Notes: generated by a model from the letters alone, not told the origin. 64,000 nucleotides of DNA from Syntrophaceae bacterium (GCA_039680665.1 JBDKSM010000143.1:31050-95049), one strand, 5' to 3'; positions 22,778 to 58,495 are shown, counted from the first letter of the stretch. Program-made: numbers and translations.

Positions 22778-23836
22778 TTACTCCTTCGGAATCCAAGAAA
22801 ACCACCGCATCGGTTCTTTGACGGCCTGCTTGAGCTTCGGATTTCTCCAGCAGTCGAAACGCGCCTTCACAATGGCAAGCCGGAGAAGCTGTTTATTGAA
22901 TGGCATGCGGTCCATCTTTTCTTTGCGGGCGAGCTTATTGGCAAAACCGCACGAGAATTTCTGGAAGTCTTGCTTGGCTTGCTCGGGATCGGTCACCGCC
23001 AGGCTGGCCACTTTGCCCGAGAGCAAGGCCCCTACGATGCCGTAGCCCCAGAAGGGCTCAATCATGCCGCTAAGCGTCCCGGCCAGAATCTTGTCGTTCC
23101 AGTAGAGCTTGGTTTCGCGGGGGAAGTATCCGAGGAAATTTCTCCAGCGCGGGAAATCCAGACCATAGCTGTCCTTAAGCACCTGTCTGAAACGTTCAAG
23201 ATCATGTTCATGAAGCGGCGTACGCGAGAAGAGCAAGGCGAACATCATGCCGTTGAGCGCGGCGGAGTAGCCATAGTCCACACTGAAGCGACCCATGTGA
23301 ATAGCCCCGTGCGAGCCGCCTTTATCCCAGGGAATCGTAGCGAGGTATCCATAGGTTGAACTGTATTTCACCCCAACGAGCTCGTAGACCTCCTTATAGA
23401 GTCCTGTGGCGATGATACTGCCGGCCGGAGCCGCTTGCAGCGCATCGGGGTCAAGCGCATGGCCGAAACGGAACTCGACGCCTGCCTCTTGGGCCAAAGC
23501 GAAGAGTCTGCGGTCGATCGAGGTTTCCCGCGGCCCCCGCTCCACATTGTAGGCCTTGGAATTGTGCACATAGGGCGGCAGCGTCAGGCGCTTGGAATCA
23601 TACCAGAACTCGGGATAGATATCGGTCGGAACGAAATACTCCGAGAGATCGATGCCGATATAGTCCCAGGTCTGCCGAGGCTGCAAGGGGGTGGTATGGA
23701 TGGAGGGATGGACATCAGGCGAGCCGCCGATAGCCGATTCACGGTCGTAAATTGTAACCTTGTGCCCCTGACGTGCCAAATCAATGCCCGCGACCATGCC
23801 GGCCAATCCGGCGCCGAAGATGGATACATGTTTCAT
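22778..23836 (-). CDS. FAD/NAD(P)-binding oxidoreductase, paralog 1 of an uncharacterised family
   Basis: Rossmann motif VSIFGAGLAGMVAGIDLARQGHKVTIYDR. Family motifs shared with 50215..51195 and 57431..58495 are GG.P..HPSIH.TP, ERGPRE.S, P.GSIIATGL and ILAGTLSG. The first ATG is at 23836; the ORF track's 23860 start is a TTG. Confidence 0.75.
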   Translation of the reverse strand: MKHVSIFGAGLAGMVAGIDLARQGHKVTIYDRESAIGGSPDVHPSIHTTPLQPRQTWDYIGIDLSEYFVPTDIYPEFWYDSKRLTLPPYVHNSKAYNVERGPRETSIDRRLFALAQEAGVEFRFGHALDPDALQAAPAGSIIATGLYKEVYELVGVKYSSTYGYLATIPWDKGGSHGAIHMGRFSVDYGYSAALNGMMFALLFSRTPLHEHDLERFRQVLKDSYGLDFPRWRNFLGYFPRETKLYWNDKILAGTLSGMIEPFWGYGIVGALLSGKVASLAVTDPEQAKQDFQKFSCGFANKLARKEKMDRMPFNKQLLRLAIVKARFDCWRNPKLKQAVKEPMRWFSWIPKE

Positions 23837-23935
23837 CAGTACATGGACCTCCTCTGCCAATATTCAGTTATCTCTCCACGAGACATTCAATGCCAAAAAC
23901 AAGCGATTCAATCCATGGCCGCCCAGGCAGCCCGA

Positions 23936-24583
23936 TCACGATCGCGATGCAACCTTCAATCCCTTGCTATCCGCCGGTGTCAGGCCCTTGATAATGACTT
24001 CCAGGATCTGATCCGTGGCATCCTTGATGGAGATCTCATTCAAGGCATTCCTTTGGGGACGAAAGACGTATTGCCTGATGGCCATCTCCACTGATCCATT
24101 GAGCATGTATGAGGCCATGATCGGGGTTATCTTCTTGCTGAACAAGCCCATTTCCTGGCCTTCCCGTACGATCTCGGCCGCACCCTCCAGCGAGAGCTCG
24201 TAGAGTTTCTGGTTCTCCTCATCATGAAATCTGTTCAGCATGGGGATGTCCATGATCATGACCTTCACCAGATCAGGGCTTTTCTGAAAATTATCAAAGA
24301 CATACTGTACCAAGCAACGCAGCTTATCGCGCGGATCGAAATAATCCCGGCTGATCTGTTCGATCTTCTTCAGATAGACCTGCGTGTTCTCCTGAAAGAT
24401 GGCGATCAGCAGATCATCCTTGCTGGGGAAGTACCGGTATATCAGGCCATACGCGATCCCGGCTTCCTCCGCAATATCAGCCACGCGGCATCCGGAATAC
24501 CCCTGCTGCGCAAAGACCTTAACGGCCGCCTTCAGTATTAAATTTCTCTTGGAAAGATTCAATTTCGGTTCCGCCATGGGCAT
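23936..24583 (-). CDS. TetR/AcrR-family transcriptional regulator
   Basis: LILKAAVKVFAQQGYSGCRVADIAEEAGIAYGLIYRYFPSKDDLL. Start at MPMAEPK (ATG complement 24581-24583) with SD AGGAG. Confidence 0.85.
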   Translation of the reverse strand: MPMAEPKLNLSKRNLILKAAVKVFAQQGYSGCRVADIAEEAGIAYGLIYRYFPSKDDLLIAIFQENTQVYLKKIEQISRDYFDPRDKLRCLVQYVFDNFQKSPDLVKVMIMDIPMLNRFHDEENQKLYELSLEGAAEIVREGQEMGLFSKKITPIMASYMLNGSVEMAIRQYVFRPQRNALNEISIKDATDQILEVIIKGLTPADSKGLKVASRS

Positions 24584-24761
24584 GCCTTCTCCTGCTTTTC
24601 CCGTCCTTTCACCATTAACGCGGCCTTTGCTTAAGGTCAAGACCCGATCACATTGAATCTATTCAACTTATGGAGCAGGCCAGGTACACCTTTTCCATGC
24701 CCGTCCACGCCGGTTGCCTGTACCGCCACGGTGATCGCAATATCCTCATTACATCCCCCGA

Positions 24762-25544
24762 TTATGCCGACGGCACCATCTCCCGGGCAATCAAGGCGGC
24801 GCCGATTGCCCCCACCATCTGCGGGTCCCAGCCGATCTTGTGGATCTTCACCCCCAGCGCTTCCTCAAGGGCGTTGAACATCCCCTCATTCTTCGCCACT
24901 CCGCCGGTCATGCCCACCTCCCCTTCCACGACGATCCCCTTGGCCAGGGCCGCCACCCGATGAGCCATGGCACGGTGCAGACCGCAAACAATATCCGGTA
25001 CGGGCTTGCCCGCGTTGATCAGCGACACGATCTCGGTTTCGGCAAATATCACGCACTGGTTCGAGACCTTGACCGGCGTTGTGGATTTCTGTGAGACCGA
25101 ACCCAGATCTTCCAGCCGCACGCCTAAAGGTTTGGCCATCACCTCTAGGAACCTGCCGGTACCAGCGGCGCACTTGTCGTTATAGGCATAGCGTATGACC
25201 TTCCCCTTTTCATCGAGCTTGATGGCCTTGGCGTCCTGGCCGCCGATATCGATGACCATGCGGATGGATGGTTCAAGCCACTGGGCCCCCCGGCCATGAC
25301 AGACGATCTCGGATTCAACGGCCTGGGCGAACGTGACCTGTTTCCTGCCATAACCGGTACCAACACAGCGCTCCACCTGATCCATGCGCATGCCTGCCTG
25401 GGCAAGGGCCTGCGCCATGACCTCGCGCGCCGATTCCTCGGGATCGGGTTTATCCCGCATGACGCAGGCAGCCAGGATGTTACTGTCCTCCATGATGACC
25501 GCCTTGGCGGTCCGCGATCCGATATCGCATCCGGCCACGATCAT
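24762..25544 (-). CDS. BcrAD/BadFG/HgdC-family ATPase (electron-activating subunit, copy 2)
   Basis: MIVAGCDIGSRTAKAV...DIGGQDAKAI...NDKCAAGTGRFLEVMA...SNQCVIFAETEIVS carries the ASKHA ATPase motifs and both Cys that ligate the bridging [4Fe-4S] cluster. ATGA overlap with the upstream ATPase gene (25541-25544). Confidence 0.85.
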   Translation of the reverse strand: MIVAGCDIGSRTAKAVIMEDSNILAACVMRDKPDPEESAREVMAQALAQAGMRMDQVERCVGTGYGRKQVTFAQAVESEIVCHGRGAQWLEPSIRMVIDIGGQDAKAIKLDEKGKVIRYAYNDKCAAGTGRFLEVMAKPLGVRLEDLGSVSQKSTTPVKVSNQCVIFAETEIVSLINAGKPVPDIVCGLHRAMAHRVAALAKGIVVEGEVGMTGGVAKNEGMFNALEEALGVKIHKIGWDPQMVGAIGAALIAREMVPSA

Positions 25545-26317
25545 AAACTCACCCCCCTGGCCAGCAGGGCCGCCCCGAGCGCGCCCACGATCTGGGGATC
25601 GACCGGCAAACGCCGCACGCGCATGCCGGTTATGGATTCCAATGACTTGACCACCCCCATGTTCTTGGCCACCCCGCCGGTCATGCACAGGTCGTTCTCG
25701 ATCCCGATGGTATTGATCAGCGTGGCCACGCGGCCGGCCATGGCATCATTGATGCCGGCGCAGATGTCAGGAAGCGGTGTGCGCTCACCCACCAGCCGGA
25801 TGATCTCGGCCTGGGCCCAGACCGTACAGGCGCTGGCAAGAACGGCCGGCTGTTTGGACTTCAGGGAAAGCTGGCCCAGATCCTCGAGCGTGATCCCCAT
25901 GAGATCGGCCATGACCTCCAGGAACCGGCCGGTGCCCGAGGCGCACTTGTCATTGGTGTAAAATTTGGCGATCTGGCCCTTGGCGTCGACCCGCATGGCC
26001 TTGCAGTCCTGGCCGCCGATATCGATGATGGTGCGCACCGCGGGCATGATCCAGTGGGCGCCTTTGGCATGGCAGACCAGTTCGGAAATGCACTGATCCG
26101 CAAACGGGATCTTTTCCCGGCCGTATCCCGTGCCCACGCAACGTTTAATATCCTGTTTGCCGATCTGTGACAACGCCAGCGCTTTGTGCAGCACCTCCTC
26201 AGCCGAGCGCGCGGGACTGGTATTGGCGTCGATCACGGCATAGCCCAGAATCCTGGTCTGGCCCAGCACGACCGCCTTGGCCGTTAGGGAACCGACATCG
26301 CATCCGGCCACGATCAT
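25541..26317 (-). CDS. BcrAD/BadFG/HgdC-family ATPase (electron-activating subunit, copy 1)
   Basis: MIVAGCDVGSLTAKAV...DIGGQDCKAM...NDKCASGTGRFLEVMA...ASACTVWAQAEII. ATGA overlap with the upstream gene (26314-26317). Confidence 0.85.
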   Translation of the reverse strand: MIVAGCDVGSLTAKAVVLGQTRILGYAVIDANTSPARSAEEVLHKALALSQIGKQDIKRCVGTGYGREKIPFADQCISELVCHAKGAHWIMPAVRTIIDIGGQDCKAMRVDAKGQIAKFYTNDKCASGTGRFLEVMADLMGITLEDLGQLSLKSKQPAVLASACTVWAQAEIIRLVGERTPLPDICAGINDAMAGRVATLINTIGIENDLCMTGGVAKNMGVVKSLESITGMRVRRLPVDPQIVGALGAALLARGVSL

Positions 26318-27708
26318 TGCAGTACCCCCCTGATTTTCAAAAATTCGCTGCACTTGCCGATCAGGTTGTCCACCGGGTCCACCCGGTTGTCAAAGGAATC
26401 GCCGTAGCTGACAAAGGTGGGGTAGCCCGCCTTCTCCAGATCCCTGACCATGAGCTTGACATTGCTCCAGGTGTTACGGCACCCCATGGTCCCGATATAG
26501 AATAAGACATCCGGTTTGACGATGCGGGCCATGGAGAGCGTGTCGTCCAGCCACATCATGGGGGCGTCATAAGGGCCCCTGATATTCTTGACCATGGGAA
26601 AGCGCGAGGTCTGGAGCGCCAGCGAATCGATGATTTTGTCATAGGATGAAAGATCCATTTCATAGCCCTCCTCCGGATGCTTGAGGAAGGGGTTGCCCTT
26701 GGGCCAGAAATCGTTCAAAAAGGCCGCGACATTCGAAATGCCCTGTTTGCGGTTCCATATGATCCATTTGATGTTGGGGCAGAAATGATCGATGTAGAAG
26801 AAAAAGGCCCGCACCTTTTCCTCGCCGACCCCGGCAATACCCTTGGCGGCATTGGCCTTGGCGATCCTGAGCATGGATTCCAGGAGCGTGGTATACTGCT
26901 TGGATCCCAGATAGATCATGCGGAAGGCGAAGTTCATCATGGCATACAGGGGGGGCATGGGGCAGGGGATGATCTGCTGCAGGTCCTGGAGTTCGTTGAA
27001 CATCTTGTCCTGGATCACGATCTCATCGGCCACTTCACGCAACCGGTCCATGTCCATCTTGCGGCCCGTCTGTTCCTCCAGGAAGGCCACCATGTTGCGA
27101 AAGTCCGCGCGGTGGTATTCGGCGGCCCTCTCGTCCGTCAGGGTGGGCGGATAATTGATGTTACACTGCGGGATGCCCAGATAGGACGAGGCAAAGGCAT
27201 AGGAAACGGCGTTGGAGTCGCACACCCCGGCCGTGGAGTACAGGATCATGTCGGGTTTTACGCCCAGTCCCGCCAGGATCGGACCCAGGGCGAGCCGCTG
27301 TCCGGTGCAGGAAGTCTCGGTGAAGCCTTTTTCGCAGCCGAAGTCCAGACAGTCGCTGATGCCCTGCTTCCATACGGCCGTGTAGAAGGTGGTCATGGCC
27401 TCGAGGCAGAACGGCACGATGTCGAAGGCATGCAGGATGGCGGGCGAGAAGTTGAAGGTGACCAGGGCCACCTTCTTGCCATGCGCATGCGCATTGACGA
27501 TTTCCTCAATGTAGTCTCTGATGAAGGTCACCATGAGCACGCCCGGCTCGCCGGTGCGGATGATCTCGTCCAAGGCGTCCCGATAGCTGGGGGCATAATT
27601 CAGTGAGTACTGATATTCCTTCTGCGTGGCGTTGGACAGGCCCAGCGCCTTGCGGGCCAGGCTTCCGAGACGCCAGTCAAAATCATATTCTTTAAACACT
27701 TCGCGCAT
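26314..27708 (-). CDS. 2-hydroxyacyl-CoA dehydratase / benzoyl-CoA reductase B (BzdO/BcrB/HgdA-like) subunit
   Basis: 464 aa. The HGD-D family look and size match BcrB/BzdO, and it is adjacent to two activator-type ATPases and a BcrC-like gene. Assignment rests on overall resemblance and context, not a computed alignment. Confidence 0.7.
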   Translation of the reverse strand: MREVFKEYDFDWRLGSLARKALGLSNATQKEYQYSLNYAPSYRDALDEIIRTGEPGVLMVTFIRDYIEEIVNAHAHGKKVALVTFNFSPAILHAFDIVPFCLEAMTTFYTAVWKQGISDCLDFGCEKGFTETSCTGQRLALGPILAGLGVKPDMILYSTAGVCDSNAVSYAFASSYLGIPQCNINYPPTLTDERAAEYHRADFRNMVAFLEEQTGRKMDMDRLREVADEIVIQDKMFNELQDLQQIIPCPMPPLYAMMNFAFRMIYLGSKQYTTLLESMLRIAKANAAKGIAGVGEEKVRAFFFYIDHFCPNIKWIIWNRKQGISNVAAFLNDFWPKGNPFLKHPEEGYEMDLSSYDKIIDSLALQTSRFPMVKNIRGPYDAPMMWLDDTLSMARIVKPDVLFYIGTMGCRNTWSNVKLMVRDLEKAGYPTFVSYGDSFDNRVDPVDNLIGKCSEFLKIRGVLQ

Positions 27709-27717
27709 AGGTCCCCC

Positions 27718-27963
27718 TTAGATACTCAGGCTCATGGAAGCCCCGCTCTTGAAGCGCTGTATATACAGCCGTGCCCGGTCCTTCAGAATGTCCATGGTGT
27801 TCTGTTTGGCAATATGGTTCAGGACCGGCAGGGCATGCTCGCGGAAAAGGGTCAGGGCATCGATGGCCCGCTGGCGTTCGGCCACCATACGCTCCTCATC
27901 CATGGCGATACTCAAAAGCGTCTCCATGGTTATCATCTGATGGTCCACACAATCTTGACACAT
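27718..27963 (-). CDS. small helical protein (81 aa) inserted between the two HGD-D-family subunit genes; unknown function
   Basis: MCQDCVDHQMITMETLLSIAMDEERMVAERQRAIDALTLFREHALPVLNHIAKQN.... ATG complement 27961-27963 with SD GGAGGTG. It fills the gap between 27987 and 27708 exactly. Confidence 0.5.
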   Translation of the reverse strand: MCQDCVDHQMITMETLLSIAMDEERMVAERQRAIDALTLFREHALPVLNHIAKQNTMDILKDRARLYIQRFKSGASMSLSI

Positions 27964-27986
27964 AGGCTCACCTCCATTTCCGTTTT

Positions 27987-29120
27987 TTACTGGATCCGCT
28001 CCAGAAAGGCATCCACCCGCATGCGCACGCGGCCGTCCTCGACCAGGGGACCATACTCCCGTTCGATGCGTATGCACGGGATGCCCATGGCCTCCAGATC
28101 GCGTTCGAAAAGGCCGTTTTCCGAGCCGTGCATGTCGCAGAAACGGACATTCTGCAGGATGACCCCGTCCACCTTGGCCTTGAGCGCCTTTTCCTTGAGG
28201 CTCTGATAGCGGGGCTGATAGTAGGCGAACATGCGCGGGCAGAAGCTGCGGTTCAGGTAGCGTTCGGACAGGGCTTTAACCGGGTCACCCTCGGTGCTTA
28301 CCAGATCGTCGAAGAGCTTGGAGCCGAAGCAGAGCGTGTCAGCCACGACCACGGCGCCGGCCTCCTCGATGACCCGCACCAGATCGGTATCATCGGTCAC
28401 GCTGCCGCCTAAGAGCACGCGCTTGCCTTTCATCCCATTGGGCTTGGCCTGTTCCAGCTCTCCCAAGGTTTCCTCCAGCAGGGGTACGTATTCGCTCCAC
28501 GGCAGGGCCGTGGAGGCCAGGATGATGGTGGTGGCATCGGTCCCGGAGATAACAATCTCATCGCGCATGCGCAGCTTTTCCAGACGCTGCAATAGCCGCC
28601 GACCCGTATTGTAGAGCTCGATCTGCTCCCGTAAGCGCTCGTCCGTGATCTTGACACCGAAATGGTTCTCCAGACTCTCAATGAGCAGGCGATTTTCCTC
28701 CTCGAACCACTTCAGGCTGTACGGCTCAACCTTATGCGGCGTGCCATAGTAGTGGTAGTAGGCCGGCAGGATACCCGGAATATCTTCATTGGCCTTGCGC
28801 CAGCACTCCTCCAGACGCCGCATGGTGTCACAGCCGTTGGTGATGATGGCGCCGTCGAGAAAGCGGTATGTGCCTTCCCCGGCCAATTGCAACAGGCATT
28901 TGGGATAACTGCAGACCACGGGCCCGTAATAGCTGTCGCCGATGTCCGTGGTGGCTGCCTCGATCCCCCGCAAGCGGTAGGGCAGCAGACCGGCCGCGCC
29001 GATGATCTCGGAAGGCACGTAGGTGCACGAATACCCCACCACCTTTTTGCCGGCGGCCTTCCAGGCCTGTACCGAGCCGTTATTGAGCTGATTTGCCGCT
29101 TCGCTGAGCTCTTTTCTCAC
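27987..29120 (-). CDS. 2-hydroxyacyl-CoA dehydratase / benzoyl-CoA reductase C (BzdN/BcrC/HgdB-like) subunit
   Basis: 377 aa. The N-terminus WKAAGKKVVGYSCTYVPSEIIGAAGLLPYRL is typical of the HGD-D family. GTG start at 29120 is preceded by AGGAGGTG. Confidence 0.7.
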   Translation of the reverse strand: MRKELSEAANQLNNGSVQAWKAAGKKVVGYSCTYVPSEIIGAAGLLPYRLRGIEAATTDIGDSYYGPVVCSYPKCLLQLAGEGTYRFLDGAIITNGCDTMRRLEECWRKANEDIPGILPAYYHYYGTPHKVEPYSLKWFEEENRLLIESLENHFGVKITDERLREQIELYNTGRRLLQRLEKLRMRDEIVISGTDATTIILASTALPWSEYVPLLEETLGELEQAKPNGMKGKRVLLGGSVTDDTDLVRVIEEAGAVVVADTLCFGSKLFDDLVSTEGDPVKALSERYLNRSFCPRMFAYYQPRYQSLKEKALKAKVDGVILQNVRFCDMHGSENGLFERDLEAMGIPCIRIEREYGPLVEDGRVRMRVDAFLERIQ

Positions 29121-30603
29121 CTTTCACCTCCTGCTCCGAAAATAAGACACTGCGTAAGGCTACCAGGGCCTCACCGTGTTCCGGGGAAGCATTATCCGGG
29201 GCCAGCAAGGCGGCCACACCTTTGACCAGGTTTGGAACCACCGCATCGGTAATCGGTTTGAGGGCTGTTAATCCATCCTGGATGAGCCATTCCGAACAGT
29301 TTTTCAGCTCATCCAGGTCCAGGCAGGTGGCCACGGAGGCGCACAGATTCGTAAGACGCTCGGGGTCATGGGCATGGATGGCATTGGCCAAGCGCAATAC
29401 CGCGCTTAAACCATCGCCCAGTTCCTGGGTATCAAGCCCGGCCATGCCATCGGAAATGGCCTGGAGCACCTCGGCACGAGGCAGCTCTTCCAGTACGCCC
29501 ACCTTCTTGCGCCAGGTGCGTATGGCCGGGTTCTTGAGTTTGGCATAGGCGCCCAGGAGTTCGTACACGAACTCCGGATGATCGCCCAATACCACGGCTT
29601 GGGCCTGGGCCATGAATTCCTTTTCCTCGGCCATGGCCACCTGGGCCTTACGCTTCAGCACCGGATCCATGGCCGCGTAGGCTTCCAGCAGCACGCGCCG
29701 CATATCTCTAGTAGTGAGCGATTCGCCCCCTTCCATGTAGAAGACGCTGCCCATATGCAGCTGCCTGATCACCTCGTTGAGCGAGTTCATGATGGCGCCG
29801 ATGGGCGCGCCTTCGATATCGCGCATCAAGGCAAATAAGAGTTCCGTGAGCAGTTCGGGTGCAATGGGGTTGAGCGAACCCACTACTTCCTGCAAGGCCT
29901 TCACGGCAATGTTGATGGCCCTGACCGCGCTGGCGGCCAGCATCAGCACCTTGGAGGGATATTCCCATAAGATTTCAACGACCTTGGTGACCATGGCCAC
30001 GAGCGGACCTTCACTTGCATCGAGAAGATCCTTGATCTCCGCGAAATCACTGTTTTTGAAAAATGTCTCCAACGGGGTTTGAGCCAGGTCGACCAGCAAG
30101 CCGGGTTCTTTTTCAAGCATGGCGCTCAGCCCCTGCAAACTCGACGTGAACAGCTTGCCGAGCTGCGCGTGGTCGATACCATGCACCATAGCCTTGATGG
30201 CATTGGCCTTCTCTTGTGGTGATAGGGCTTGCATGGCATCCCCCATTCGCGTCAATGCGGCCAAGATGATGTTCACGACCTCCGGCACTGCGCCAAAGAT
30301 ATCGATTATGTTGTGCGGATCGGACCAAAAGACCTCAAGGGCATGACCGTTGTCGCGGGCCGATCGCGGATCGATGAACCCGTAGGCCGCCTTCAGGATG
30401 ACATGCTCGGTCAATTTCTTCTTGACCCGGCTCTGGCCCGACCAAGCATAGAACAGATCGGCGATAACATTTTTAACCACCTCCTTGCCGCCCTGGGTCC
30501 TGATCACGCCGGAGACGATCTTGCTCAAGAGCTCAGCGCCATTGCCGCCCTGCGTCACGCCGTGCTTGTGTTTGAACCATTCTTCCATATCGCTGCCGCT
30601 CAT
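29080..30603 (-). CDS. hypothetical all-helical protein (507 aa) with three copies of a W-x-[DE]...P..(N)..AL motif
   Basis: Start at MSGSDMEEWF (ATG complement 30601-30603) with SD GAGGAGG. ATGA overlap with the upstream gene, and a 41-nt overlap with the downstream BcrC-like gene. No family recognised. Confidence 0.6.
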   Translation of the reverse strand: MSGSDMEEWFKHKHGVTQGGNGAELLSKIVSGVIRTQGGKEVVKNVIADLFYAWSGQSRVKKKLTEHVILKAAYGFIDPRSARDNGHALEVFWSDPHNIIDIFGAVPEVVNIILAALTRMGDAMQALSPQEKANAIKAMVHGIDHAQLGKLFTSSLQGLSAMLEKEPGLLVDLAQTPLETFFKNSDFAEIKDLLDASEGPLVAMVTKVVEILWEYPSKVLMLAASAVRAINIAVKALQEVVGSLNPIAPELLTELLFALMRDIEGAPIGAIMNSLNEVIRQLHMGSVFYMEGGESLTTRDMRRVLLEAYAAMDPVLKRKAQVAMAEEKEFMAQAQAVVLGDHPEFVYELLGAYAKLKNPAIRTWRKKVGVLEELPRAEVLQAISDGMAGLDTQELGDGLSAVLRLANAIHAHDPERLTNLCASVATCLDLDELKNCSEWLIQDGLTALKPITDAVVPNLVKGVAALLAPDNASPEHGEALVALRSVLFSEQEVKGEKRAQRSGKSAQ

Positions 30604-31247: not shown

Positions 31248-31681
31248 ACCCCACCTCCTTCGTCGGACAGGGTCTGAACGCCCGCGTCGGGTGCGTTTTG
31301 GGAAAAGAGCGGTGCAATTTCGGCCAGGATGCGGGATAATCCCGTTGTGACATTCCCCACCGCCACCAAATCTATGTCGGCCAAGATGATCCTGACCACC
31401 TCGCGTAAAAACTCCGGTGGAAAATGGTCGTTGATCTGCGTTACCGTTTCTTCGGCCGCCTTGATGCAGGCATTGGCCACCTTTGGGATGGCATCCGCGA
31501 CTGACAGTGCCACCCCCACATCCTCCCAAATCAAGGTACGCACGAGATCCGGGACGGAACCCGGATCGATGTGATTCAGAAGTGTAGCCAGATTGGCCTT
31601 GAACCCCGGCTTATTGAGCAGGGCCTTGGCGATGCGGTTGCCCAGCTCGAAGATCCCTTTAGTTTTTGCGTTTTCATCCAT
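31244..31681 (-). CDS. hypothetical helical protein (145 aa)
   Basis: MDENAKTKGIFELGNRIAKALLNKPGF...LVRTLIWEDVGVALSVADAIPKVANACIKA. SD GAGGTG lies 6 nt upstream, 13 nt after the ACAD stop. Confidence 0.6.
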   Translation of the reverse strand: MDENAKTKGIFELGNRIAKALLNKPGFKANLATLLNHIDPGSVPDLVRTLIWEDVGVALSVADAIPKVANACIKAAEETVTQINDHFPPEFLREVVRIILADIDLVAVGNVTTGLSRILAEIAPLFSQNAPDAGVQTLSDEGGGV

Positions 31682-31694
31682 GACGCACCTCGCT

Positions 31695-50181: not shown

Positions 50182-50214
50182 GAGAATCAAGACACTTTCA
50201 TTGCATAGGATGGA

Positions 50215-51195
50215 GTGATGACAAACAAGAAAGATATCAGGATCGTCGGAGCCGGGCCAGCCGGGCTGGTGGCGGCCATTGATTTGAACCGTGCGGGGTA
50301 TAATGTCATCGTTTACGACAAACAGGACAGCGTGGGCGGGGAACCCGGCTGGCACCCTTCCGTGCACTCCACCCCGGTTTCAAAAAAGCTCTTCGATTAT
50401 ATCGGGATCGACTGCCGGGAGGCCTTTGTGGAAAGCTCGCACTGTTTCAAGGCCTTTGTGTTCGGCGAGCAGGTCGACGTCAACCCGTATCAGGAAACCG
50501 GATTATTCAACACGGAACGAGGCCATAAACCAACATCGCTTGATAATGTCCTTTACCGTATTGCCGCACAGGAAGGGGTCAACTTCGAATTCCGATCCAC
50601 CTGGAAGGAAGATGATTTCAGGAAAGCCCCCAAAGGCACCATAATCGCCACCGGTTTATCGGGTGGGGTGTACGAATGGATGGAGATCCCCTGCTCCGTA
50701 TTTGCCGGCTATTGGGCCTATTCCGAGATCGAGAAGGACTACATCTCCACGGCCGGGTATTTCGGGTCCTACTCCAACGAGTACGGCTATGCCGGGTCCA
50801 TGAACGGCATCTGGTACGTGCTGCTCTTTGCCCGCAAGGAGGTCCCGCCTGAGAACCTGGAGGCCTTCAAGCAGGAACTGCTCAGGGTGGAAGGCCGAAC
50901 CTTCGACCGGTGGCGCCGCTTCAGCGGCCTGACGCCCAAGGGCCCACGGCTCTATCACAAGGACTTCATCCTGACCGGGACCTTCGGCGGGTTCGTCGAA
51001 CCGGCCTACGGTTTCGGCATCACCGGCTCGCTCCTCTCGGGCAAGATATCGGCCATGGCGGTCTACGACCCCCAAAAGGCCGAAAAGGAGTTCCACACCT
51101 ACACGGACGGCATTATCACGCACATCGCGCGCAAACGCCAACCCGGCTATGCCCCTTCCGCTCTCATGGGTGATGTCTGGTTCGATGTCCATTAA
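50215..51195 (+). CDS. FAD/NAD(P)-binding oxidoreductase, paralog 2 of the uncharacterised family
   Basis: IRIVGAGPAGLVAAIDLNRAGYNVIVYDK...GGEPGWHPSVHSTP...ERGHKPTS...PKGTIIATGL...ILTGTFGG. Confidence 0.75.
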   Translation: MMTNKKDIRIVGAGPAGLVAAIDLNRAGYNVIVYDKQDSVGGEPGWHPSVHSTPVSKKLFDYIGIDCREAFVESSHCFKAFVFGEQVDVNPYQETGLFNTERGHKPTSLDNVLYRIAAQEGVNFEFRSTWKEDDFRKAPKGTIIATGLSGGVYEWMEIPCSVFAGYWAYSEIEKDYISTAGYFGSYSNEYGYAGSMNGIWYVLLFARKEVPPENLEAFKQELLRVEGRTFDRWRRFSGLTPKGPRLYHKDFILTGTFGGFVEPAYGFGITGSLLSGKISAMAVYDPQKAEKEFHTYTDGIITHIARKRQPGYAPSALMGDVWFDVH

Positions 51196-52513
51196 TGAAG
51201 GGCGGCGTGTGCGCACGCATAAACACCAGGCTTTGAGCGGTCCAAGCACCAGGCTTCGCCCTCTCAGGCGGGAGAGAAATCTGCCGTTGAAGGTATGCCT
51301 GCTCTCGTACCGGGGGAATCCAACCAGCGGCGGCCAGGGCGTCTATATCAGGCGCATCAGTCGGGCGCTTTCCGATCTGGGGCATAGCGTGGATGTTCTC
51401 TCCGGGCCGCCGTACCCGCATCTCGACCCCGATATCACGCTGCATAAGCTGCCCGGCCTGGACCTGTACAATCCGGATGCCCTGTTCCGAAAACCCAGCA
51501 TCAAAGAGCTCACATCTCCCATCAACACCCTGGAATGGCTCAGCGCCGCTTCCGGCGGGTTTCCTGAACCGCTGGCCTTCAGCCTGCGCGCGCTTACGTT
51601 CATGCACAGGAACGGACATCGCTATGACGTCATCCACGACAACCAGTGCCTGGCCTATGGCCTCTTAGGCATTCAGTCCATGATCCCCACGGTAGCCACC
51701 ATCCATCACCCGATCACGAAAGACCGCGATATCTCGATCAGGGCCGCGTCCACGCTCTCCAAGAAGATCAACATCCGGCGCTGGTATCATTTCCTGGCCA
51801 TGCAGAAGCGCGTCTCGCGCCGGATCTCCAACCTGATCACGGTCTCCGAGGCCTCCCGAGCGGATATCAGCAAGGACTTCGCGATCGATAACAGACGCTT
51901 CCATGTGGTGGCCAACGGTATCAATACCGAGATATTCCACCCCGTACCCGGCGTGAAACGCCCGGAAAACCGGCTGATCGTGACCAACAGCGCCGATACC
52001 CCACTCAAGGGCCTGCGCTTCCTCATGCTGGCCATGGCGGAACTGCGTCGAAGCAGGGATGTGAATCTGACCGTGATCGGCAAACCCAAATCCGGGGGCG
52101 TAATCGAACGTCTGGTGGGAGAACTCGAGCTTACCAGCGCCGTAACCTTTACGGGCCGTATCGACGAGCGGGATTTTGCCCGCTACTATGCCACCAGCAC
52201 CCTAGCGGTGGTCCCTTCCCTCTATGAAGGCTTCGGCCTGCCGGCGGGCGAGGCCATGGCCTGCGGTGTGTCGGTGGTCAGCACCACCGGCGGGGCCCTG
52301 CCCGAGGTGGTCGGCAATGCCGGCGTGCTCGTACCACCGGGCGATGCGCATGCCCTGGCCGCGGCCATCGCTGATCTGCTCGAGAGTCCGGATAAACGCC
52401 AGGCCCTGGGCCAGGCCGGGTATGAGCGGGTCATCCGCAACTTCACCTGGTGCCGCTGCGCCGAGAAGACTGCGGAAGTCTATGGCAAGGCTATCGATGC
52501 CCATGCCCACTGA
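51185..52513 (+). CDS. GT-B fold glycosyltransferase (GT4 family)
   Basis: LKVCLLSYRGNPTSGGQGVYIRRISRALSDLGHSVDVLS, with the C-terminal EGFGLPAGEAMACGVSVVSTTGGALPEVV (E-x7-E region). The start is uncertain: candidates are ATG 51185, GTG 51209, or a TTG at about 51285 just before KVCLLSY. Confidence 0.8.
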   Translation: MSINEGRRVRTHKHQALSGPSTRLRPLRRERNLPLKVCLLSYRGNPTSGGQGVYIRRISRALSDLGHSVDVLSGPPYPHLDPDITLHKLPGLDLYNPDALFRKPSIKELTSPINTLEWLSAASGGFPEPLAFSLRALTFMHRNGHRYDVIHDNQCLAYGLLGIQSMIPTVATIHHPITKDRDISIRAASTLSKKINIRRWYHFLAMQKRVSRRISNLITVSEASRADISKDFAIDNRRFHVVANGINTEIFHPVPGVKRPENRLIVTNSADTPLKGLRFLMLAMAELRRSRDVNLTVIGKPKSGGVIERLVGELELTSAVTFTGRIDERDFARYYATSTLAVVPSLYEGFGLPAGEAMACGVSVVSTTGGALPEVVGNAGVLVPPGDAHALAAAIADLLESPDKRQALGQAGYERVIRNFTWCRCAEKTAEVYGKAIDAHAH

Positions 52514-52729: not shown

Positions 52730-52836
52730 CCACCTGCCCGTCTTAGCCATCCCGGGTTATGCGCATCTTGGCGTCAGCTTCAAGCGATGACACCAAAGTG
52801 GTCAAGCAGGCAATACATCGTTGCACGGAGGCCATG

Positions 52837-54516
<1,680 letters not shown>

Positions 54517-54620
54517 GAAACAAATATATCGGTCGCGCCCAGGAAAGACTTGTACCGAGGAGTTCGCGAATTATATTGTATGTATGCTATTGAAATACCT
54601 GTACATGAAAGGAGGGCGTC

Positions 54621-56294
54621 ATGGGTTTCGAGCGCATCTGGCACAAGTCCTATCAGGCCGGGGTCCCGGCCGAGATCGATGTTGAAAAGATCACCTTGTC
54701 GGAGGCGCTCTCCAGAAGCGCTCTGAGCCACCCGGAGGTTGATGCCCTGATCTACATGGGCAAACGCATCACCTACCGGGAATTAGATGCCCTGGTCAAC
54801 CGCTTTAGCCGGGCACTTACGACGCTGGGGGTGAAGAAGGGCAACAAGGTCGCCATGCTGCTGCCCAACATACCCCAGGCGGTGATCGCCAATTACGCGA
54901 CCTTTCGCATCGGGGCCGTGGCGGCCATGAACAACCCGCTCTATACCGAGCGCGAACTGGCCTACCAGCTAAACGACCAGGACGCCGAGGTCCTGGTGAC
55001 CCTCGATCTGCTCGTGCCCAGGATTCAGAAGATCAGGCAGCAGACCAAAATCCGCACCGTCATCGCCTGTCATATCAACGATTACCTGCCGTTTCCGATC
55101 AAACAGCTTTTCCCCCATCTCAAGAAAGAGATGTATCGCAAGCTGACACCTGGCGACGGAGTGCACGAATTTCTGCCGCTGATCGGCACCTGCTCCGATG
55201 CGCCCCTTCCCGACGAGGCAAACTGGGAAGACCTGGGCGCCCTGCTCTATACTGGCGGCACCACGGGGGTCACCAAGGGGGTGATGCTCACCCAGGCCAA
55301 CCTGTCCACCAACATGCAGCAACTTAGGTCATGGATGCCGGAGTTTGAGAACGGCAAGGAACGGCTGCTGGCCATCTTCCCCTTTTTCCACGCCGCCGGG
55401 TTCACGGGGCTGCAGAACCTCGGCCTCTTCAGCGCCTCCACCCTCATCCTCGTCCCGCGTCCCGACCCCGCCGCCATCATCGACCAGATCCGCAAATTCA
55501 AGCCCACCTTCGTCCCCGGCGTGCCGACCATCTTTGTAGGGCTGCTTAATAACGCGAAGTTCAGAGAGCTCGACCTGCGCTTCATCAAGCACTTCATCGC
55601 CGGGGCGGCCCCCCTGTCCATGCAAACGGTCAAGGAGCTCAAGGACATGACCGGAGCGATCATCGCCAATATCTACGGCCTGACCGAGACCTCCCCCATG
55701 GCCACGGTTACCCCGGCCATCGGCAAACAGAAACCCGAAACGGTTGGATTGCCGCTGCCCAATACCGATCTCAAGATCGTGGATGTGGAAACCGGGACCA
55801 AGGAGATGCCGTTGGGCGAAGCCGGAGAGGTCTGTTTCAAAGGTCCGCAGGTCATGCAGGGTTACTACAAGAAACCGGAGGAAACCGCGGCCGTGCTGAA
55901 GGACGGCTGGCTCCATACGGGCGATATCGGCGTGCTGGACCATGACGGCTTCCTTACCATTGTGGACCGCAAGAAGGACATGATCATCGCCAGCGGCTAC
56001 AATATCTATCCTAAGGAAATCGACGAGGTCCTCTTAGAGCACCCCAAGATTCTCGAGGCCTGCACCATCGGCATTCCGGACGAGTACCGGGGCGAGACGG
56101 TCAAGGCCTTCGTGGTGCGCAAACCCGGCGAATCCCTTGAGGCCGAAGAGGTCATCCTGTTCTGCAAGGAGCGCCTGGCCGCCTACAAAGTTCCCAAACA
56201 AATAAAATTTCTGGAAGAGCTGCCCAAGAGCGCGGTGGGCAAGGTCCTCAGACGCGAGCTCAGAGAACGCGAAATCGGGGCAGGAGAACGATAA
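54621..56294 (+). CDS. long-chain-fatty-acid--CoA ligase-like (FadD-type), tandem copy 2
   Basis: MGFERIWHKSYQAGVP..., YTGGTTGVTKGVMLTQANL, and GDIGVLDHDGFLTIVDRKKDMIIASGYNIYPKEIDE. Collinear with copy 1 over its whole length. SD AAGGAGG. Confidence 0.9.
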   Translation: MGFERIWHKSYQAGVPAEIDVEKITLSEALSRSALSHPEVDALIYMGKRITYRELDALVNRFSRALTTLGVKKGNKVAMLLPNIPQAVIANYATFRIGAVAAMNNPLYTERELAYQLNDQDAEVLVTLDLLVPRIQKIRQQTKIRTVIACHINDYLPFPIKQLFPHLKKEMYRKLTPGDGVHEFLPLIGTCSDAPLPDEANWEDLGALLYTGGTTGVTKGVMLTQANLSTNMQQLRSWMPEFENGKERLLAIFPFFHAAGFTGLQNLGLFSASTLILVPRPDPAAIIDQIRKFKPTFVPGVPTIFVGLLNNAKFRELDLRFIKHFIAGAAPLSMQTVKELKDMTGAIIANIYGLTETSPMATVTPAIGKQKPETVGLPLPNTDLKIVDVETGTKEMPLGEAGEVCFKGPQVMQGYYKKPEETAAVLKDGWLHTGDIGVLDHDGFLTIVDRKKDMIIASGYNIYPKEIDEVLLEHPKILEACTIGIPDEYRGETVKAFVVRKPGESLEAEEVILFCKERLAAYKVPKQIKFLEELPKSAVGKVLRRELREREIGAGER

Positions 56295-56295
56295 A

Positions 56296-57420
56296 ATGTC
56301 TGAACAGCTTTGGAACAAGGCTGCCACAACGGTTGTAAACGCCGGACAGATCCCCATACCCATCACCGCCACCCTGCTTGAACTCATGCAAACCATCATG
56401 AATGCAGAACAGGCCGAGTTCATTCAGATCTTCAACAAACCGCTGAGCTTCGATGAGATCAAAAAAAAGACTTCATGGGATGAAAACTCCATACTCAGCA
56501 TCTTGCATGAATTGATGCACAACGGCATCGTCACCGGGATTCCCAGCCGCACTACCGGCACCATGGTCTATAGACTCTTGCCTCCCATACCGGGCATCTT
56601 TGAATTCACCCTGATCCGGGGGCTCTCAGGCGTTAAGGAAAAGAAGATTGCGGGCCTGTTCGATGCCTTATCAGAGGAACTCACCGCGATCGTTCAAGGC
56701 AGCTACAACGACAGCGTGGAGATATTCAAGGCCATACCGCCCCTGACCAGGGTCGTGCCGGTGGAAAAGCAGATCGCCCAAGGGGCCGACACCATCCTTC
56801 CCTATGATGAAGTCAACCGGATTATCGACAAGTTCGATACCATCGCCGTCGTGCACTGCTACTGCCGCCACGAAAAAGACCTGCTGGGCAAACCCTGCAA
56901 GGTAACGCAGGAAAAAAGGAATTGCCTGGCCTTCGGTCAGATCGCCCGATTCATCATCGATTACCGCTTCGGCGAAGAGATCTCCAGGCAGGAAGCCAAA
57001 AGAATCCTTGATGAAACCGAAGAGGCCGGGCTTGTGCACAAGGCCTTTCACGACAAGGACGATATCCGGCGGGACGAGGTCGCCATCTGCAACTGCTGCA
57101 AATGCTGCTGTGGAACCTTTGAGCTGTATTACCGGGCAGCGGCCCCGATCAGCACCTATACTTCCTATCGGGCCACCGTGAAATCTGATGAATGCACTGC
57201 CTGCGCCATGTGTATCGAACGCTGTCCGATGGAGGCTATCCGTCTGACAGGTCTTGATGAGATATGCATCGATGAAGACAGGTGCATCGGCTGCGGCATC
57301 TGCGCGCACCATTGCCCCAGCGCCGCGATTAACCTGGAGCGAACCGGGATAAGGGAAGTCTTCGTGCCGCCTCCTAAAATCGCAGCTAGTGAAACGCGCC
57401 ACTCCGTGAAAATGACTTAA
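56296..57420 (+). CDS. Cys-rich iron-sulfur protein with C-terminal 2x[4Fe-4S] ferredoxin domain
   Basis: CTACAMCIERCP and CIGCGICAHHCP are ferredoxin motifs. Additional clusters HCYCRHE...C and CNCCKCCCG are present. The N-terminal ~190 aa is unrecognised. Confidence 0.8.
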   Translation: MSEQLWNKAATTVVNAGQIPIPITATLLELMQTIMNAEQAEFIQIFNKPLSFDEIKKKTSWDENSILSILHELMHNGIVTGIPSRTTGTMVYRLLPPIPGIFEFTLIRGLSGVKEKKIAGLFDALSEELTAIVQGSYNDSVEIFKAIPPLTRVVPVEKQIAQGADTILPYDEVNRIIDKFDTIAVVHCYCRHEKDLLGKPCKVTQEKRNCLAFGQIARFIIDYRFGEEISRQEAKRILDETEEAGLVHKAFHDKDDIRRDEVAICNCCKCCCGTFELYYRAAAPISTYTSYRATVKSDECTACAMCIERCPMEAIRLTGLDEICIDEDRCIGCGICAHHCPSAAINLERTGIREVFVPPPKIAASETRHSVKMT

Positions 57421-57430
57421 GGAGGTCTGT

Positions 57431-58495
57431 ATGCCGGAGGTGGTAATCGTTGGCGCCGGTCTGGCGGGACTTACCGCCGCCATCTCCTGCGCCCGCGTCG
57501 GGCATGAGGTTCGCGTACTGGAGAAGTATAAGCAGGTTGGAGGGGCGCCGGACCACCATCCGAGTATCGACATGACCCCCATGCTTCCTGATCGCATGGG
57601 AAAATTCCTCGGTCTGGACTTGAAACCGCCGCATGTCACGCCTACGGCTTCCGTACGCTTTATTGCCTACGGTAAGAACTACGAGGTTGCCGGCGCGCCC
57701 TTGTTTCTCCAATCGGTGGAGCGGGGCCCGCGTGAAAGTTCCCTGGAAACTCACCTGTTCAAGGTTGCCCGGGATTGCGGGGTGCGCTTCGAGTTCAATT
57801 GGAGCCTGCGCTCCCAGAAAGACGTCGTGGAATTACCGCCGGGCAGTATCATCGCCACCGGGTTGCATCACGAACCCTACCTGGCCTTGGGCATACCGCG
57901 CCAGGATATGTATGGTTTCGCGGGCAAAGGCCTCTGCGATGGTCCGCCCAGAGGTGCAGCCTGGTTTGATCCCATCATCGGCGAATACAGCTTTCTCACC
58001 AACAGCAACGGGGTTTCATTTGCCATGGCCTTTGACCGCCGGCCCATATCCCGGCAGTCCCAGGAGCGCTTCATCATGCTTCTGAAGCAGAACCTGGATG
58101 TGGAGCTGAAGGATTGGCATACCTTCGAGGCCGCGGTGGGGGTCAAACAGCTGGATAATCCGCGCTTGTTCTCCGGCAGATATATCCTCGCCGGCACCTT
58201 GTCCGGTATTCAGGACCCCTTTTTCTTCTTCGGCGTGCACGCTTCCCTGCTCTCGGGCACCATCGCGGCGCAGGCGGTGGACGATAAGGCCTCTGCCTGG
58301 GATCGATTCAATAGGTTGTCCTCGATCTACAAATATACCTATCTAGCCAGACGACTCTTTGACCCCTTGCCCCATGCGGTGCGCAAACCCCTGCTCCGCA
58401 CTTTTGTTATGTTGCAGACCAAATCACCCGAGCGTTACGGCCGCATGGTCACCAAGCTCATCCCTGGATTTGTCGACTTACAGAAGCGTGCCTGA
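57431..58495 (+). CDS. FAD/NAD(P)-binding oxidoreductase, paralog 3 of the uncharacterised family
   Basis: VVIVGAGLAGLTAAISCARVGHEVRVLEK...GGAPDHHPSIDMTP...ERGPRESS...PPGSIIATGL...ILAGTLSG. SD AAGGAGG, 10 nt after the Fe-S protein stop. Confidence 0.75.
   Translation: MPEVVIVGAGLAGLTAAISCARVGHEVRVLEKYKQVGGAPDHHPSIDMTPMLPDRMGKFLGLDLKPPHVTPTASVRFIAYGKNYEVAGAPLFLQSVERGPRESSLETHLFKVARDCGVRFEFNWSLRSQKDVVELPPGSIIATGLHHEPYLALGIPRQDMYGFAGKGLCDGPPRGAAWFDPIIGEYSFLTNSNGVSFAMAFDRRPISRQSQERFIMLLKQNLDVELKDWHTFEAAVGVKQLDNPRLFSGRYILAGTLSGIQDPFFFFGVHASLLSGTIAAQAVDDKASAWDRFNRLSSIYKYTYLARRLFDPLPHAVRKPLLRTFVMLQTKSPERYGRMVTKLIPGFVDLQKRA

Follow-up and report, generated by a model that had tools for sequence, protein, structure and literature searches.

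Enzymes of the class I benzoyl-CoA reductase (BCR)/2-hydroxyacyl-CoA dehydratase (HAD) family catalyse reductions that are among the most difficult in biology, and to our knowledge the substrate classes described for them are few: benzoyl-CoA analogues, tetrahydronaphthoyl-CoA (THN-CoA) and 2-hydroxyacyl-CoAs. Within this family, the hadAIBC-acdB and fldAIBC operons follow a common logic, whereby a family III CoA-transferase, an activator-type ATPase, two HGD-D subunits and an acyl-CoA dehydrogenase (ACAD) are encoded together. The present work examines a region of about 36 kb (positions 22778-58495) within a 64,000-nucleotide stretch of DNA, hereafter the window, from a Syntrophaceae bacterium (GCA_039680665.1, JBDKSM010000143.1:31050-95049). 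On the minus strand the region carries the genes of a putative reductase of this family with its accessory proteins (cassette A), and on the plus strand those of a thiolase or R-specific β-oxidation module (cassette B). The original prediction, made from the sequence alone, had taken the whole region for one coherent catabolic supercluster. Comparison with other loci suggests that at least two cassettes, each conserved in its own right, have probably come to lie side by side in this lineage alone, arranged around the divergent intergenic region 38533-38807.

The closest described systems differ for the two halves. For cassette A, the class I BCR BzdNOPQ provides the structural reference (8S02), in which the [8Fe-9S] cluster is held by Cys36, Cys73, Cys100, Cys263, Cys293 and Cys327 of BzdN, and the [4Fe-4S]-OH2 cluster by Cys95, Cys128 and Cys380 of BzdO (PMC11971306). 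The thn cluster of the naphthalene-degrading culture N47 combines a THN-CoA reductase with β-oxidation-like genes, including ThnP, a family I transferase, and ThnO, an ACAD homotetramer in which each subunit contains one FAD (PMC11659651). The fatty acid synthase complex of S. acidocaldarius is an assembly of KT, DUF35, short-chain dehydrogenase/reductase (SDR) and MaoC components (bioRxiv 10.1101/2024.07.05.601840); together with the archaeal thiolase/HMGCS/DUF35 complex (6ESQ) and PhlACB, it represents the closest characterised analogue of the core of cassette B.

The gene map of the window was compiled from a six-frame listing of open reading frames and from Pfam and NCBIfam scans of the encoded proteins, and the starts were fixed by gene calls made independently on a public contig of identical sequence (Logan SRR6048342). 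Public loci compared with the window are designated by L-numbers, of which L014-L093 are the 80 loci around homologs of the HMGS/DUF35 fusion gene of cassette B.

The predicted reductase core of cassette A

An ATP-dependent reductase of the class I BCR type had been predicted for this region, and its genes are indeed present (24762-29120). The domain families, cysteine ligands, gene coupling and conservation of the cassette are direct observations. As in the Bzd enzyme, the core consists of four genes, coding for two BcrAD-type ATPases and two HGD-D subunits, termed N-like and O-like. Both ATPases exceed the cut-off of the general model TIGR00241 (252 bits for 24762-25544), and BzdQ is the best-scoring model for both, with 191-192 bits (24762-25544) and 211 bits (25541-26317) against an equivalog cut-off of 380. 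The N-like subunit finds its closest PDB match in BzdN (E=2.5e-41), followed by HadC (E=1e-35), MbdN and double-cubane proteins. All six cluster cysteines of BzdN correspond to cysteine in the N-like subunit (HMMER alignment), and these residues (C32, C70, C97, C264, C294 and C328) are invariant across 16 family members sharing 55-66% identity; the equivalents of BzdN Arg53, Arg290 and His330 are likewise kept. In the same alignment HadC lacks two of the six cysteines, exhibiting proline and alanine at these positions.

The O-like subunit is barely alignable with its Bzd counterpart (E=5.7e-4 to BzdO). Its family contains exactly three invariant cysteines (C134, C163 and C410 in 12 orthologs and paralogs), the number which serves the open-site [4Fe-4S] cluster of BzdO; BzdO Cys95 and Cys128 are aligned with cysteines, and C410 is matched to Cys380 by position alone. 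The position of BzdO His131 is occupied by Asn (HMMER alignment), and the region of Trp46 and Glu65 is not alignable. None of the reductase subunits reaches the NCBIfam equivalog cut-offs for bzdN/O/P/Q or bcrA-D, all four falling far below them (N-like, 139 against 454 for bzdN; O-like, 25 against 449 for bzdO). Among the annotated neighbours, neither an adjoining small ferredoxin nor a dienoyl-CoA hydratase/Oah-type gene was found. A further departure from the Bzd system lies in the additional components, since the window adds three helical proteins (u507, u215 and u145), an 81-aa protein and an atypical ACAD pair, while its relatives add a CdhC-like/CooC-like pair.

Judged by its ligands and its subunit composition, the predicted reductase is of Bzd-type architecture and cofactor ligation with a different active-site environment, and it is placed outside every characterised orthologous group. 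On these grounds cassette A is likely to encode a radical enzyme of the class I BCR/HAD family, as yet uncharacterised and with a BzdNOPQ-like build. We infer how the electrons travel, what type of reaction takes place and that the substrate is a CoA ester, the proposed reaction being an ATP-driven two-electron reduction of an acyl-CoA: the two ATPases would act as a heterodimer, in which ATP hydrolysis drives low-potential electrons to the [8Fe-9S] double-cubane cluster of the N-like subunit, from which they would pass to the three-cysteine [4Fe-4S] site of the O-like subunit, where the substrate would be reduced.

The dehydratases of the Had/Fld type belong to the same superfamily, and cassette A could alternatively be read as a 2-hydroxyacyl-CoA dehydratase system (Had/Fld/Lcd type), whereby the transferase makes the 2-hydroxyacyl-CoA, one-electron activation by the ATPase or ATPases enables the HGD-D pair to remove water from it, and the ACAD-like flavoprotein reduces the resulting enoyl-CoA. 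The gene set of the window operon, with its family III CoA-transferase, ATPases, two HGD-D subunits and ACAD-family flavoprotein, mirrors those of hadAIBC-acdB and fldAIBC; the best NCBIfam match of the O-like subunit is HadB (E=7e-9, compared to 9e-6 for bzdO), and HadC is the second-best PDB match of the N-like subunit. Yet the cassette codes for two distinct, translationally coupled ATPases rather than one homodimeric activator, and its non-catalytic subunit keeps the full set of double-cubane ligands which HadC does not. Moreover, the CoA-transferase lies outside the cassette in every distant relative and is orthologous to the transferase of cassette B, the catalytic Glu that an enoyl-CoA reductase or ACAD would be expected to have is missing from the ACAD pair, and the scores are far below the Had equivalog cut-offs (HadB, 35 against 750 for the O-like subunit; HadC, 150 against 700 for the N-like subunit). 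A dehydratase is accordingly considered highly improbable, and the cassette is treated below as a candidate Bzd-like reductase.

Accessory proteins of cassette A

From the CoA-transferase gene down to the second ATPase gene, the minus-strand genes follow one another closely, with overlaps of 4-41 nt at six junctions, which argues for one translationally coupled operon (24762-36390). A homolog of u507 is found directly upstream of the N-like gene in all contexts examined. This protein matches no family in Pfam or NCBIfam; word-indexed searches, with either the sequence or a profile, returned six close matches each, and the family, which comprises 298 representative clusters, became visible only in an exhaustive HMMER search. 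The AlphaFold (AF2) model built from 60 family representatives is all-α, with a predicted local distance difference test score (pLDDT) of 84.6, whereas an alignment of four sequences was too shallow and gave an unusable model (pLDDT 34). A fold search of the better model against the PDB gave no match better than E=2. The two smaller helical proteins are homologous to parts of u507, as the alignment of u145 and u215 matches the u507 family with a hhalign probability of 98.4% (E=7e-15). The constant position and the overlapping stop and start codons suggest that the helical proteins serve as subunits or scaffolds. All three are probably extra subunits, a scaffold or substrate handlers, having a fold without PDB match. 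The motif of the 81-aa protein, ERQRAIDALTLF, is equally tied to the cassette, for its pattern matches 10 cassette loci and none of L014-L093.

The two overlapping ACAD-like genes code for an unequal pair. The α subunit keeps the FAD motifs TEPQGGSD and WPSNSGG, while the β subunit, whose best PDB match has E=1.2e-10, displays ILPGLGDAG in place of TEPxxGSD. At the position of MCAD Glu376 the α subunit contains Leu (YEG reads WLG), its orthologs having Met or Glu, and the position used in IVD-type enzymes is not acidic. Standard α,β-dehydrogenation is therefore doubtful; the pair would probably form a heteromeric flavoprotein that acts on the product or the substrate of the reductase by non-standard dehydrogenation or isomerisation. 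Its nearest architectural parallel is ChsE4-ChsE5 (PDB 4X28), likewise encoded by adjacent overlapping ACAD genes, of which only one product retains the FAD motifs. The window pair differs from it in the distance to 4X28_A (E=9e-9), in the residue at the catalytic Glu position (Leu, Met or Glu among orthologs) and in its neighbours, which are BCR-like rather than steroid genes. Of the parallels drawn to the Chs system in the original prediction, the two-gene ACAD pair is thus borne out, in contrast to the ChsH2-type fusion of DUF35 and MaoC acting with Ltp2, since the DUF35 domain resides here on an HMGS-like protein.

Conservation of cassette A in other genomes

Hundreds of N-like homologs with 55-66% identity occur in metagenome-assembled genomes (MAGs) annotated as Thermodesulfobacteriota, Smithella, Syntrophales, Desulfomonilia and Bacillota, none of them specifically named; a scan of a genome collection with the N-like subunit gave a single match, on one 3.4-kb MAG contig. 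The apparently anaerobic host of the original prediction agrees with these relatives, which are MAGs of anaerobic Thermodesulfobacteriota. Besides the window and its close relative L008, eight contexts of the cassette were examined (L003/4, L005, L006/7, L009 from Bacillota, L010, L011, L012 and L013). All eight share the same order: a helical protein of 427-497 aa (cut at the contig end in L011), the N-like subunit, one to three O-like subunits, two ATPases, a 240-aa CdhC-like protein and a CooC/NifH-like ATPase. A small protein of 52-91 aa lies inside the HGD-D block in six of them, no such gene being called in L009 and L013, and the ACAD-like pair together with two short helical proteins is found upstream in four.

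The last two genes of this order form a pair 3' of the ATPases in each of the eight contexts, consisting of a CdhC (ACS β-subunit) domain protein of 211-244 aa with an invariant C-terminal DCxxCxYxDVC, followed by a CooC/NifH/CbiA-type ATPase. A role in maturation or in electron transfer is conceivable for this pair. Two or three O-like paralogs accompany a single N-like subunit and ATPase pair in L006 (11175-15687), L010 (11393-14240) and L011 (1281-4359), which suggests that exchangeable, substrate-specific subunits are served by one electron-activation module. No relevant description of a BCR-like/ACAD/CdhC cassette in Smithella, Syntrophales or Desulfomonilia was found in the literature, nor a counterpart for its accessory genes.

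The surroundings of the cassette bear on its function. In the eight contexts the flanks consist of housekeeping (SecA, ArgJ, Suf, His) or unrelated genes, and β-oxidation genes are present in none. This raises the alternative that in anaerobic Thermodesulfobacteriota and Bacillota the cassette serves a housekeeping or biosynthetic reduction, for instance one that modifies a lipid or cofactor, and that its β-oxidation neighbours in the window are incidental. The placement of the L003/4, L005 and L006/7 cassettes amid SecA, ArgJ, Suf and His genes agrees with this alternative, as do the wide spread of the homologs across lineages and the presence of a carotenoid-synthase-like gene (L013) and a GMC oxidoreductase (L009) as neighbours. 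It is less easily reconciled with the TetR gene that usually adjoins the cassette (L006, L009, L010 and L012 among the eight), a feature typical of substrate-responsive catabolic or lipid operons, with the two- to three-fold multiplication of O-like subunits, which resembles substrate diversification, or with the recruitment of a CoA-transferase and an exported START protein in the lineage of the window. A non-catabolic role is on balance judged distinctly unlikely.

Cassette B and its relation to cassette A

The core of cassette B (40078-44631) comprises five genes and would constitute an R-specific, fatty-acid-type β-oxidation or thiolase module, to which ACADs, ligases, a thioesterase and a major facilitator superfamily (MFS) transporter are added in the window. 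Its first gene codes for a 487-aa protein in which a 3-hydroxy-3-methylglutaryl-CoA synthase (HMGS)/PhlA-like domain is fused to DUF35 (PF12172 and PF01796, residues 369-462), with PDB matches to PhlA (1.8e-33), archaeal HMGCS (2.7e-25) and DUF35 (5e-13). The DUF35 partner of the thiolase which had been predicted here is therefore present, albeit as the C-terminal domain of this fusion. The HMGS-like domain keeps the catalytic Cys (SACLKSG), while the Glu is replaced by Thr (LASTT compared to GSES) and the His by Tyr (IIYP compared to VFHQ), and both HMGS models remain below their cut-offs (PRK04262, 194 against 244; TIGR00748, 133 against 353). Since the catalytic triad is incomplete, the protein was rejected as a bona fide HMG-CoA synthase. 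The adjoining SCP-x-type thiolase passes the acetyl-CoA acetyltransferase model NF004810 (688 bits against 403), and fails the BbsB (162 against 750) and lipid-transfer-protein models of NCBIfam.

By analogy with the DUF35 thiolase complexes, cassette B would probably work as a DUF35-mediated multi-enzyme assembly. It shares with them the joint encoding of an SCP-x thiolase, DUF35 and an HMGS/PhlA-like protein, and the adjacent SDR and MaoC genes complete the enzyme set of S. acidocaldarius; the differences are the fusion of DUF35 to the HMGS-like domain, the incomplete triad, the division of MaoC into two genes and the bacterial host. The SDR, with its GNFGQANY motif, and the hydratase-2 fold, present as N-terminal-type and MaoC-type halves, confirm the expected R-specific set of the MFE-2/Hsd4A type, although the enzymes are separate polypeptides and the SDR scores below the PRK07791 cut-off (250 against 373). 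Identity with BbsAB, the parallel proposed from the bbs operons, was rejected, because the BbsB model failed and the DUF35 domain is fused to an HMGS-like domain rather than standing alone as BbsA. Identity with Ltp2/ChsH2 was rejected as well, as DUF35 is not fused to MaoC in the manner of ChsH2 and the lipid-transfer-protein model failed. In NCBIfam, the equivalog cut-offs for BCR, Had, Bbs, HMGS, cyclohexanecarboxyl-CoA dehydrogenase, other specific ACADs and steroid enzymes are reached by no gene of the region, in agreement with the earlier expectation that no characterised pathway would match it gene for gene.

A scan of metagenomes with the HMGS/DUF35 fusion recovered the 80 loci, with 56-92% identity, and in about 40 unrelated loci among them the MFE-2 SDR motif lies at a fixed offset of about +4.1 kb. 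L028 (72% identity) contains the five genes in the same order with 72-74% identity, while L082 (58% identity) retains the fusion-thiolase pair only, amid housekeeping genes. The common order and fixed offset indicate that the five-gene core is an independent and very common module. The ACAD pair of cassette A was traced among these loci by its twin EKHWRD motif, formulated as a degenerate DNA pattern which matches every locus known to carry the pair; it occurred in one of the 80 (L014, 92% identical), although many of these loci are too short to exclude linkage, the upstream flank reaching 8.5 kb or more in only about 28 of them. Linkage of the two cassettes is thus restricted to close relatives of the window, which argues against a conserved supercluster. 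Its absence from the eight distant contexts of cassette A and from 79 of the 80 contexts of cassette B indicates that the association is recent and limited to close relatives (L014 and L008).

The family III CoA-transferase changes its allegiance by lineage. Its signature precedes the HMGS/DUF35 gene by about 0.5 kb on the same strand in 11 loci, and the window enzyme is 62% identical to the transferase directly preceding the fusion gene in L028 (8778-9974); it is thus the first gene of cassette B in many loci, and the head of the reductase operon in the window lineage. In the window lineage it stands on the strand opposite to cassette B; in the window, L014 and L008 it lies ahead of the reductase operon and is followed by the START protein, and L008 has the same arrangement of CoA-transferase, START protein and cassette A as the window. 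The placement of a CoA-transferase and an exported START protein in front of cassette A, in this lineage only, suggests a hydrophobic carboxylic acid as substrate.

These observations determine how far the region may be regarded as one pathway. Such a pathway would serve the breakdown of a bulky alicyclic, aromatic or isoprenoid acid by uptake (START, MFS), activation (ligases, CoA-transferase), ATP-dependent reduction and MFE-2-type β-oxidation, for which the thn operon offers an analogy. The divergent gene sets are immediate neighbours (38532 and 38808), the transferase normally belonging to cassette B heads the reductase operon in the window and L008, three paralogous FAD proteins lie on both sides, and a FadL-type (Toluene_X) gene is found near the cassette in L003. 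The two sets are nevertheless unlinked in the eight distant contexts and in 79 of 80 contexts of the β-oxidation core; this core is generic and very widespread, no protein shows an equivalog-level match to bbs, thn-type, steroid or cyclohexanecarboxylate enzymes, and the glycosyltransferase family 4 (GT4) and PrpE-like ligase genes on the right do not suit a single catabolic route. The analogy to thn is also limited, as judged from the description of the thn proteins: the window transferase is of family III and not family I, its ACAD is a heteromeric-looking pair without the catalytic Glu rather than a homotetramer such as ThnO, and the association of reductase and β-oxidation genes is not conserved past close relatives. 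One pathway spanning the 36 kb is therefore rather unlikely, and the coherent supercluster of the original prediction did not withstand the comparison of synteny. A local functional link, hinted at by the swapped transferase and the FAD paralogs on both sides, may exist in this lineage, and it is plausible that cassette A feeds cassette B in this organism.

Several points weigh against the interpretation of the region as a juxtaposition of a reductase cassette and a separate module. The short flanks of many fusion loci have been mentioned. The window and its close relative are without the CdhC-like/CooC-like pair at the position where the other contexts contain it, and have a TetR gene and an FAD protein there instead, so that the window cassette may be incomplete or rely on genes elsewhere. 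The housekeeping surroundings of many relatives also fit a non-catabolic role, and the roles given to the helical proteins and the ACAD pair are drawn entirely from gene linkage. The divergence of the O-like subunit (E of about 5e-4 to BzdO, His131 replaced by Asn) is such that reductase activity, as opposed to a dehydratase or another radical reaction, is deduced only from the double-cubane ligands of the N-like subunit and the two ATPase genes. Finally, the identity of the substrate is not readable from sequence.

Gene content of the region and its flanks

Every item in the predicted inventory was recovered by HMM searches at or near its implied coordinates (Table 1), and the region is dense in CoA-thioester enzymes, as had been proposed. 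The inventory included four AMP-forming CoA ligases and a truncated fifth, a CaiB/BaiF-type CoA-transferase, four ACAD-family genes with an overlapping non-canonical pair, a split MaoC, an MFE-2-type SDR, an SCP-x thiolase, an exported START-like protein, an MFS transporter, a Cys-rich Fe-S protein and three FAD proteins, which are true paralogs of an uncharacterised family with 31-34% identity spread over both halves. It had missed the three helical proteins, the 81-aa protein, the DUF4442 thioesterase and the GT4 glycosyltransferase; the latter is not an ortholog of the GT4 enzyme near the L028 cassette, a relation which was rejected at 22% identity. The description of the region as punctuated by TetR genes was overstated: one lies inside it, whereas two others are just to its left and none occurs in the right-hand 34 kb.

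Table 1. Features of the window and of related loci (window positions unless a locus is named)
Feature	Position	Strand	Basis and remarks
Truncated AMP-forming CoA ligase	3-932	-	
NUDIX + IF-2B-family fusion protein	995-2335		unusual; adjoins truncated ligase
1083-aa protein, seven PKD/K319L-like repeats	7878-11129	-	in housekeeping flank
TetR-family regulator	18834-19841		130-aa N-terminal extension
571-aa protein	20014-21729		no Pfam match
TetR-family regulator	22093-22731		
FAD/NAD(P)-binding flavoprotein, paralog 1 of 3, 352 aa	22778-23836	-	Pfam match on N-terminal Rossmann region only; downstream of cassette TetR
TetR-family regulator beside reductase cassette	23936-24583	-	TetR_N E=1.2e-18
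BcrAD/BadFG-family ATPase subunit, 260 aa, BzdQ/P-like	24762-25544	-	PF01869 E=1.8e-56
Second, distinct BcrAD/BadFG-family ATPase subunit, 258 aa	25541-26317	-	PF01869 E=2.9e-55; 4-nt overlap with each neighbour
O-like (catalytic) HGD-D subunit, 464 aa	26314-27708	-	PF06050 116 bits; very divergent
81-aa conserved protein	27718-27963	-	alignment; motif ERQRAIDALTLF; between the two HGD-D genes
N-like HGD-D subunit, 377 aa, predicted [8Fe-9S] double-cubane carrier	27987-29120	-	PF06050 289 bits
u507, all-helical protein	29080-30603	-	41-nt overlap with N-like gene, translationally coupled
u215, helical paralog of u507	30600-31247	-	alignment and hhalign
u145, helical paralog	31244-31681	-	alignment and hhalign; N-terminal ~100 aa common with u215
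ACAD-like α subunit, 418 aa	31695-32951	-	Pfam ACAD domains
ACAD-like β subunit, 417 aa, degenerate FAD motif	32948-34201	-	weak ACAD Pfam matches; 4-nt overlap with α gene
START-domain lipid-binding protein	34438-35139	-	PF01852 E=5.5e-10; signal-peptide-like N-terminus, starts MKKGLGLAAVAVTLFLLSSAGFG; only in window and close relative L008
Family III CoA-transferase	35155-36390	-	PF02515 E=3.8e-95; first gene of minus-strand operon
Long ACAD with Acyl-CoA_dh_C domain, up to 629 aa	36643-38532	-	Pfam; adjoins divergent intergenic region
Canonical ACAD, IVD/LCAD type	38808-39959	+	Pfam E=1e-45; YAG at MCAD position, Glu in MDER motif
HMGS/PhlA-like domain fused to C-terminal DUF35 (zinc ribbon + OB), 487 aa	40078-41541	+	Pfam
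SCP-x-type thiolase	41542-42762	+	Pfam; start 1 nt past fusion stop codon
MaoC/hydratase-2 N-terminal-type subunit	42767-43216	+	PF13452 E=5e-26, PF22622
MaoC dehydratase subunit	43228-43659	+	PF01575 E=2e-25; start re-set to MAQDLYF; 144-aa equivalent in L028
MFE-2-type SDR, 3-hydroxyacyl-CoA dehydrogenase-like, GNFGQANY motif	43720-44631	+	Pfam; 74% identical to L028 homolog
FadD-type acyl-CoA ligase	44701-46470	+	Pfam; NCBIfam long-chain ligase models under cut-off
DUF4442 thioesterase	46467-46919	+	Pfam; 4-nt overlap with preceding ligase
MFS transporter	46962-48299	+	Pfam
ACS/PrpE-like ligase	48265-50181	+	Pfam; PrpE 757 bits against cut-off 955
FAD paralog 2	50215-51195	+	paralogy by comparison
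GT4 glycosyltransferase	51149-52513	+	Pfam
FadD-type ligase	52759-54516	+	Pfam, NCBIfam
FadD-type ligase	54621-56294	+	Pfam, NCBIfam
374-aa Fer4 protein	56296-57420	+	Pfam; 2x[4Fe-4S] ferredoxin domain = C-terminal ~60 residues only
FAD paralog 3	57431-58495	+	34% identical to 22778-23836
AbiEii toxin	58686-59549		
AbiEi-like antitoxin	59521-60120		weak
tRNA gene	60140-60224	-	
CdhC-like/CooC-like pair	L003:14419-15930		
CdhC-like/CooC-like pair	L005:9229-10726		
CdhC-like/CooC-like pair	L006:17249-18743		
CdhC-like/CooC-like pair	L009:12941-14461		
CdhC-like/CooC-like pair	L010:15810-17304		
CdhC-like/CooC-like pair	L011:6051-7426		
CdhC-like/CooC-like pair	L012:14380-15872		
CdhC-like/CooC-like pair	L013:14256-15868		

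On the plus strand, the genes of 38808-52513 are closely packed, and the 245-nt gap before the second block (52759-58495) suggests, from its coordinates, a separate transcription unit. In this block the Fer4 protein, whose N-terminal ~280 residues match no family, is translationally adjacent to the third FAD paralog, an arrangement suggestive of a two-component reductase. The scan for promoters and terminators gave counts no higher than the shuffled expectation; the sole strong σ70-like site (38583 to 38555, minus strand, 11 of 12 matches) lies in the divergent intergenic region. An Rfam scan found no riboswitch, non-coding RNA or other regulatory RNA within the region.

The left 1-22 kb and the right 58.6-64 kb contain mostly housekeeping or unrelated genes, including those for RuvX, YceG, response regulators, a PKD-repeat protein, Amt/GlnD, a HisF-like protein, an AbiE toxin-antitoxin pair, a tRNA, a prepilin peptidase, AccA and DnaE. 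As 20 kb of housekeeping genes separate the truncated ligase from the main region, it is unlikely to belong to it; the adjoining NUDIX and IF-2B-family fusion is itself unusual, and the same flank codes for the large protein with PKD/K319L-like repeats. Just to the left of the region, a pair of TetR genes flanks the 571-aa protein, and the identical public contig shows the same arrangement. At the right end, the AbiE pair and the tRNA gene may mark the edge of a mobile or variable segment.

Conclusions

As the two halves of the region travel separately in almost all genomes, a 36-kb supercluster is unfit as a single pathway model for annotation; this framing is weak, and the conserved reductase cassette is the worthwhile target. 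Tentatively, and as a possibility rather than a probability, cassette A might represent a hitherto undescribed class of multi-subunit, ATP-driven double-cubane radical reductases, in which a BzdNOPQ-like core is permanently associated with helical subunits of a new fold from the u507 family, an 81-aa subunit and a flavoprotein pair without the catalytic base. Such enzymes would be widespread in syntrophic and sulfate-reducing Thermodesulfobacteriota and in some Bacillota, and would act on a non-benzoyl, probably hydrophobic or alicyclic acyl-CoA, with exchangeable, multiplied O-type subunits setting the specificity. The clade formed by cassette A is both abundant and conserved, its homolog clusters in sediments and anaerobic digesters running into the hundreds, and it offers a defined gene set to express. 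The combination of complete double-cubane ligands with a substrate subunit that defies recognition and with three accessory proteins of no known fold points to an ATP-dependent reduction that has so far gone unrecognised in anaerobic carbon cycling.

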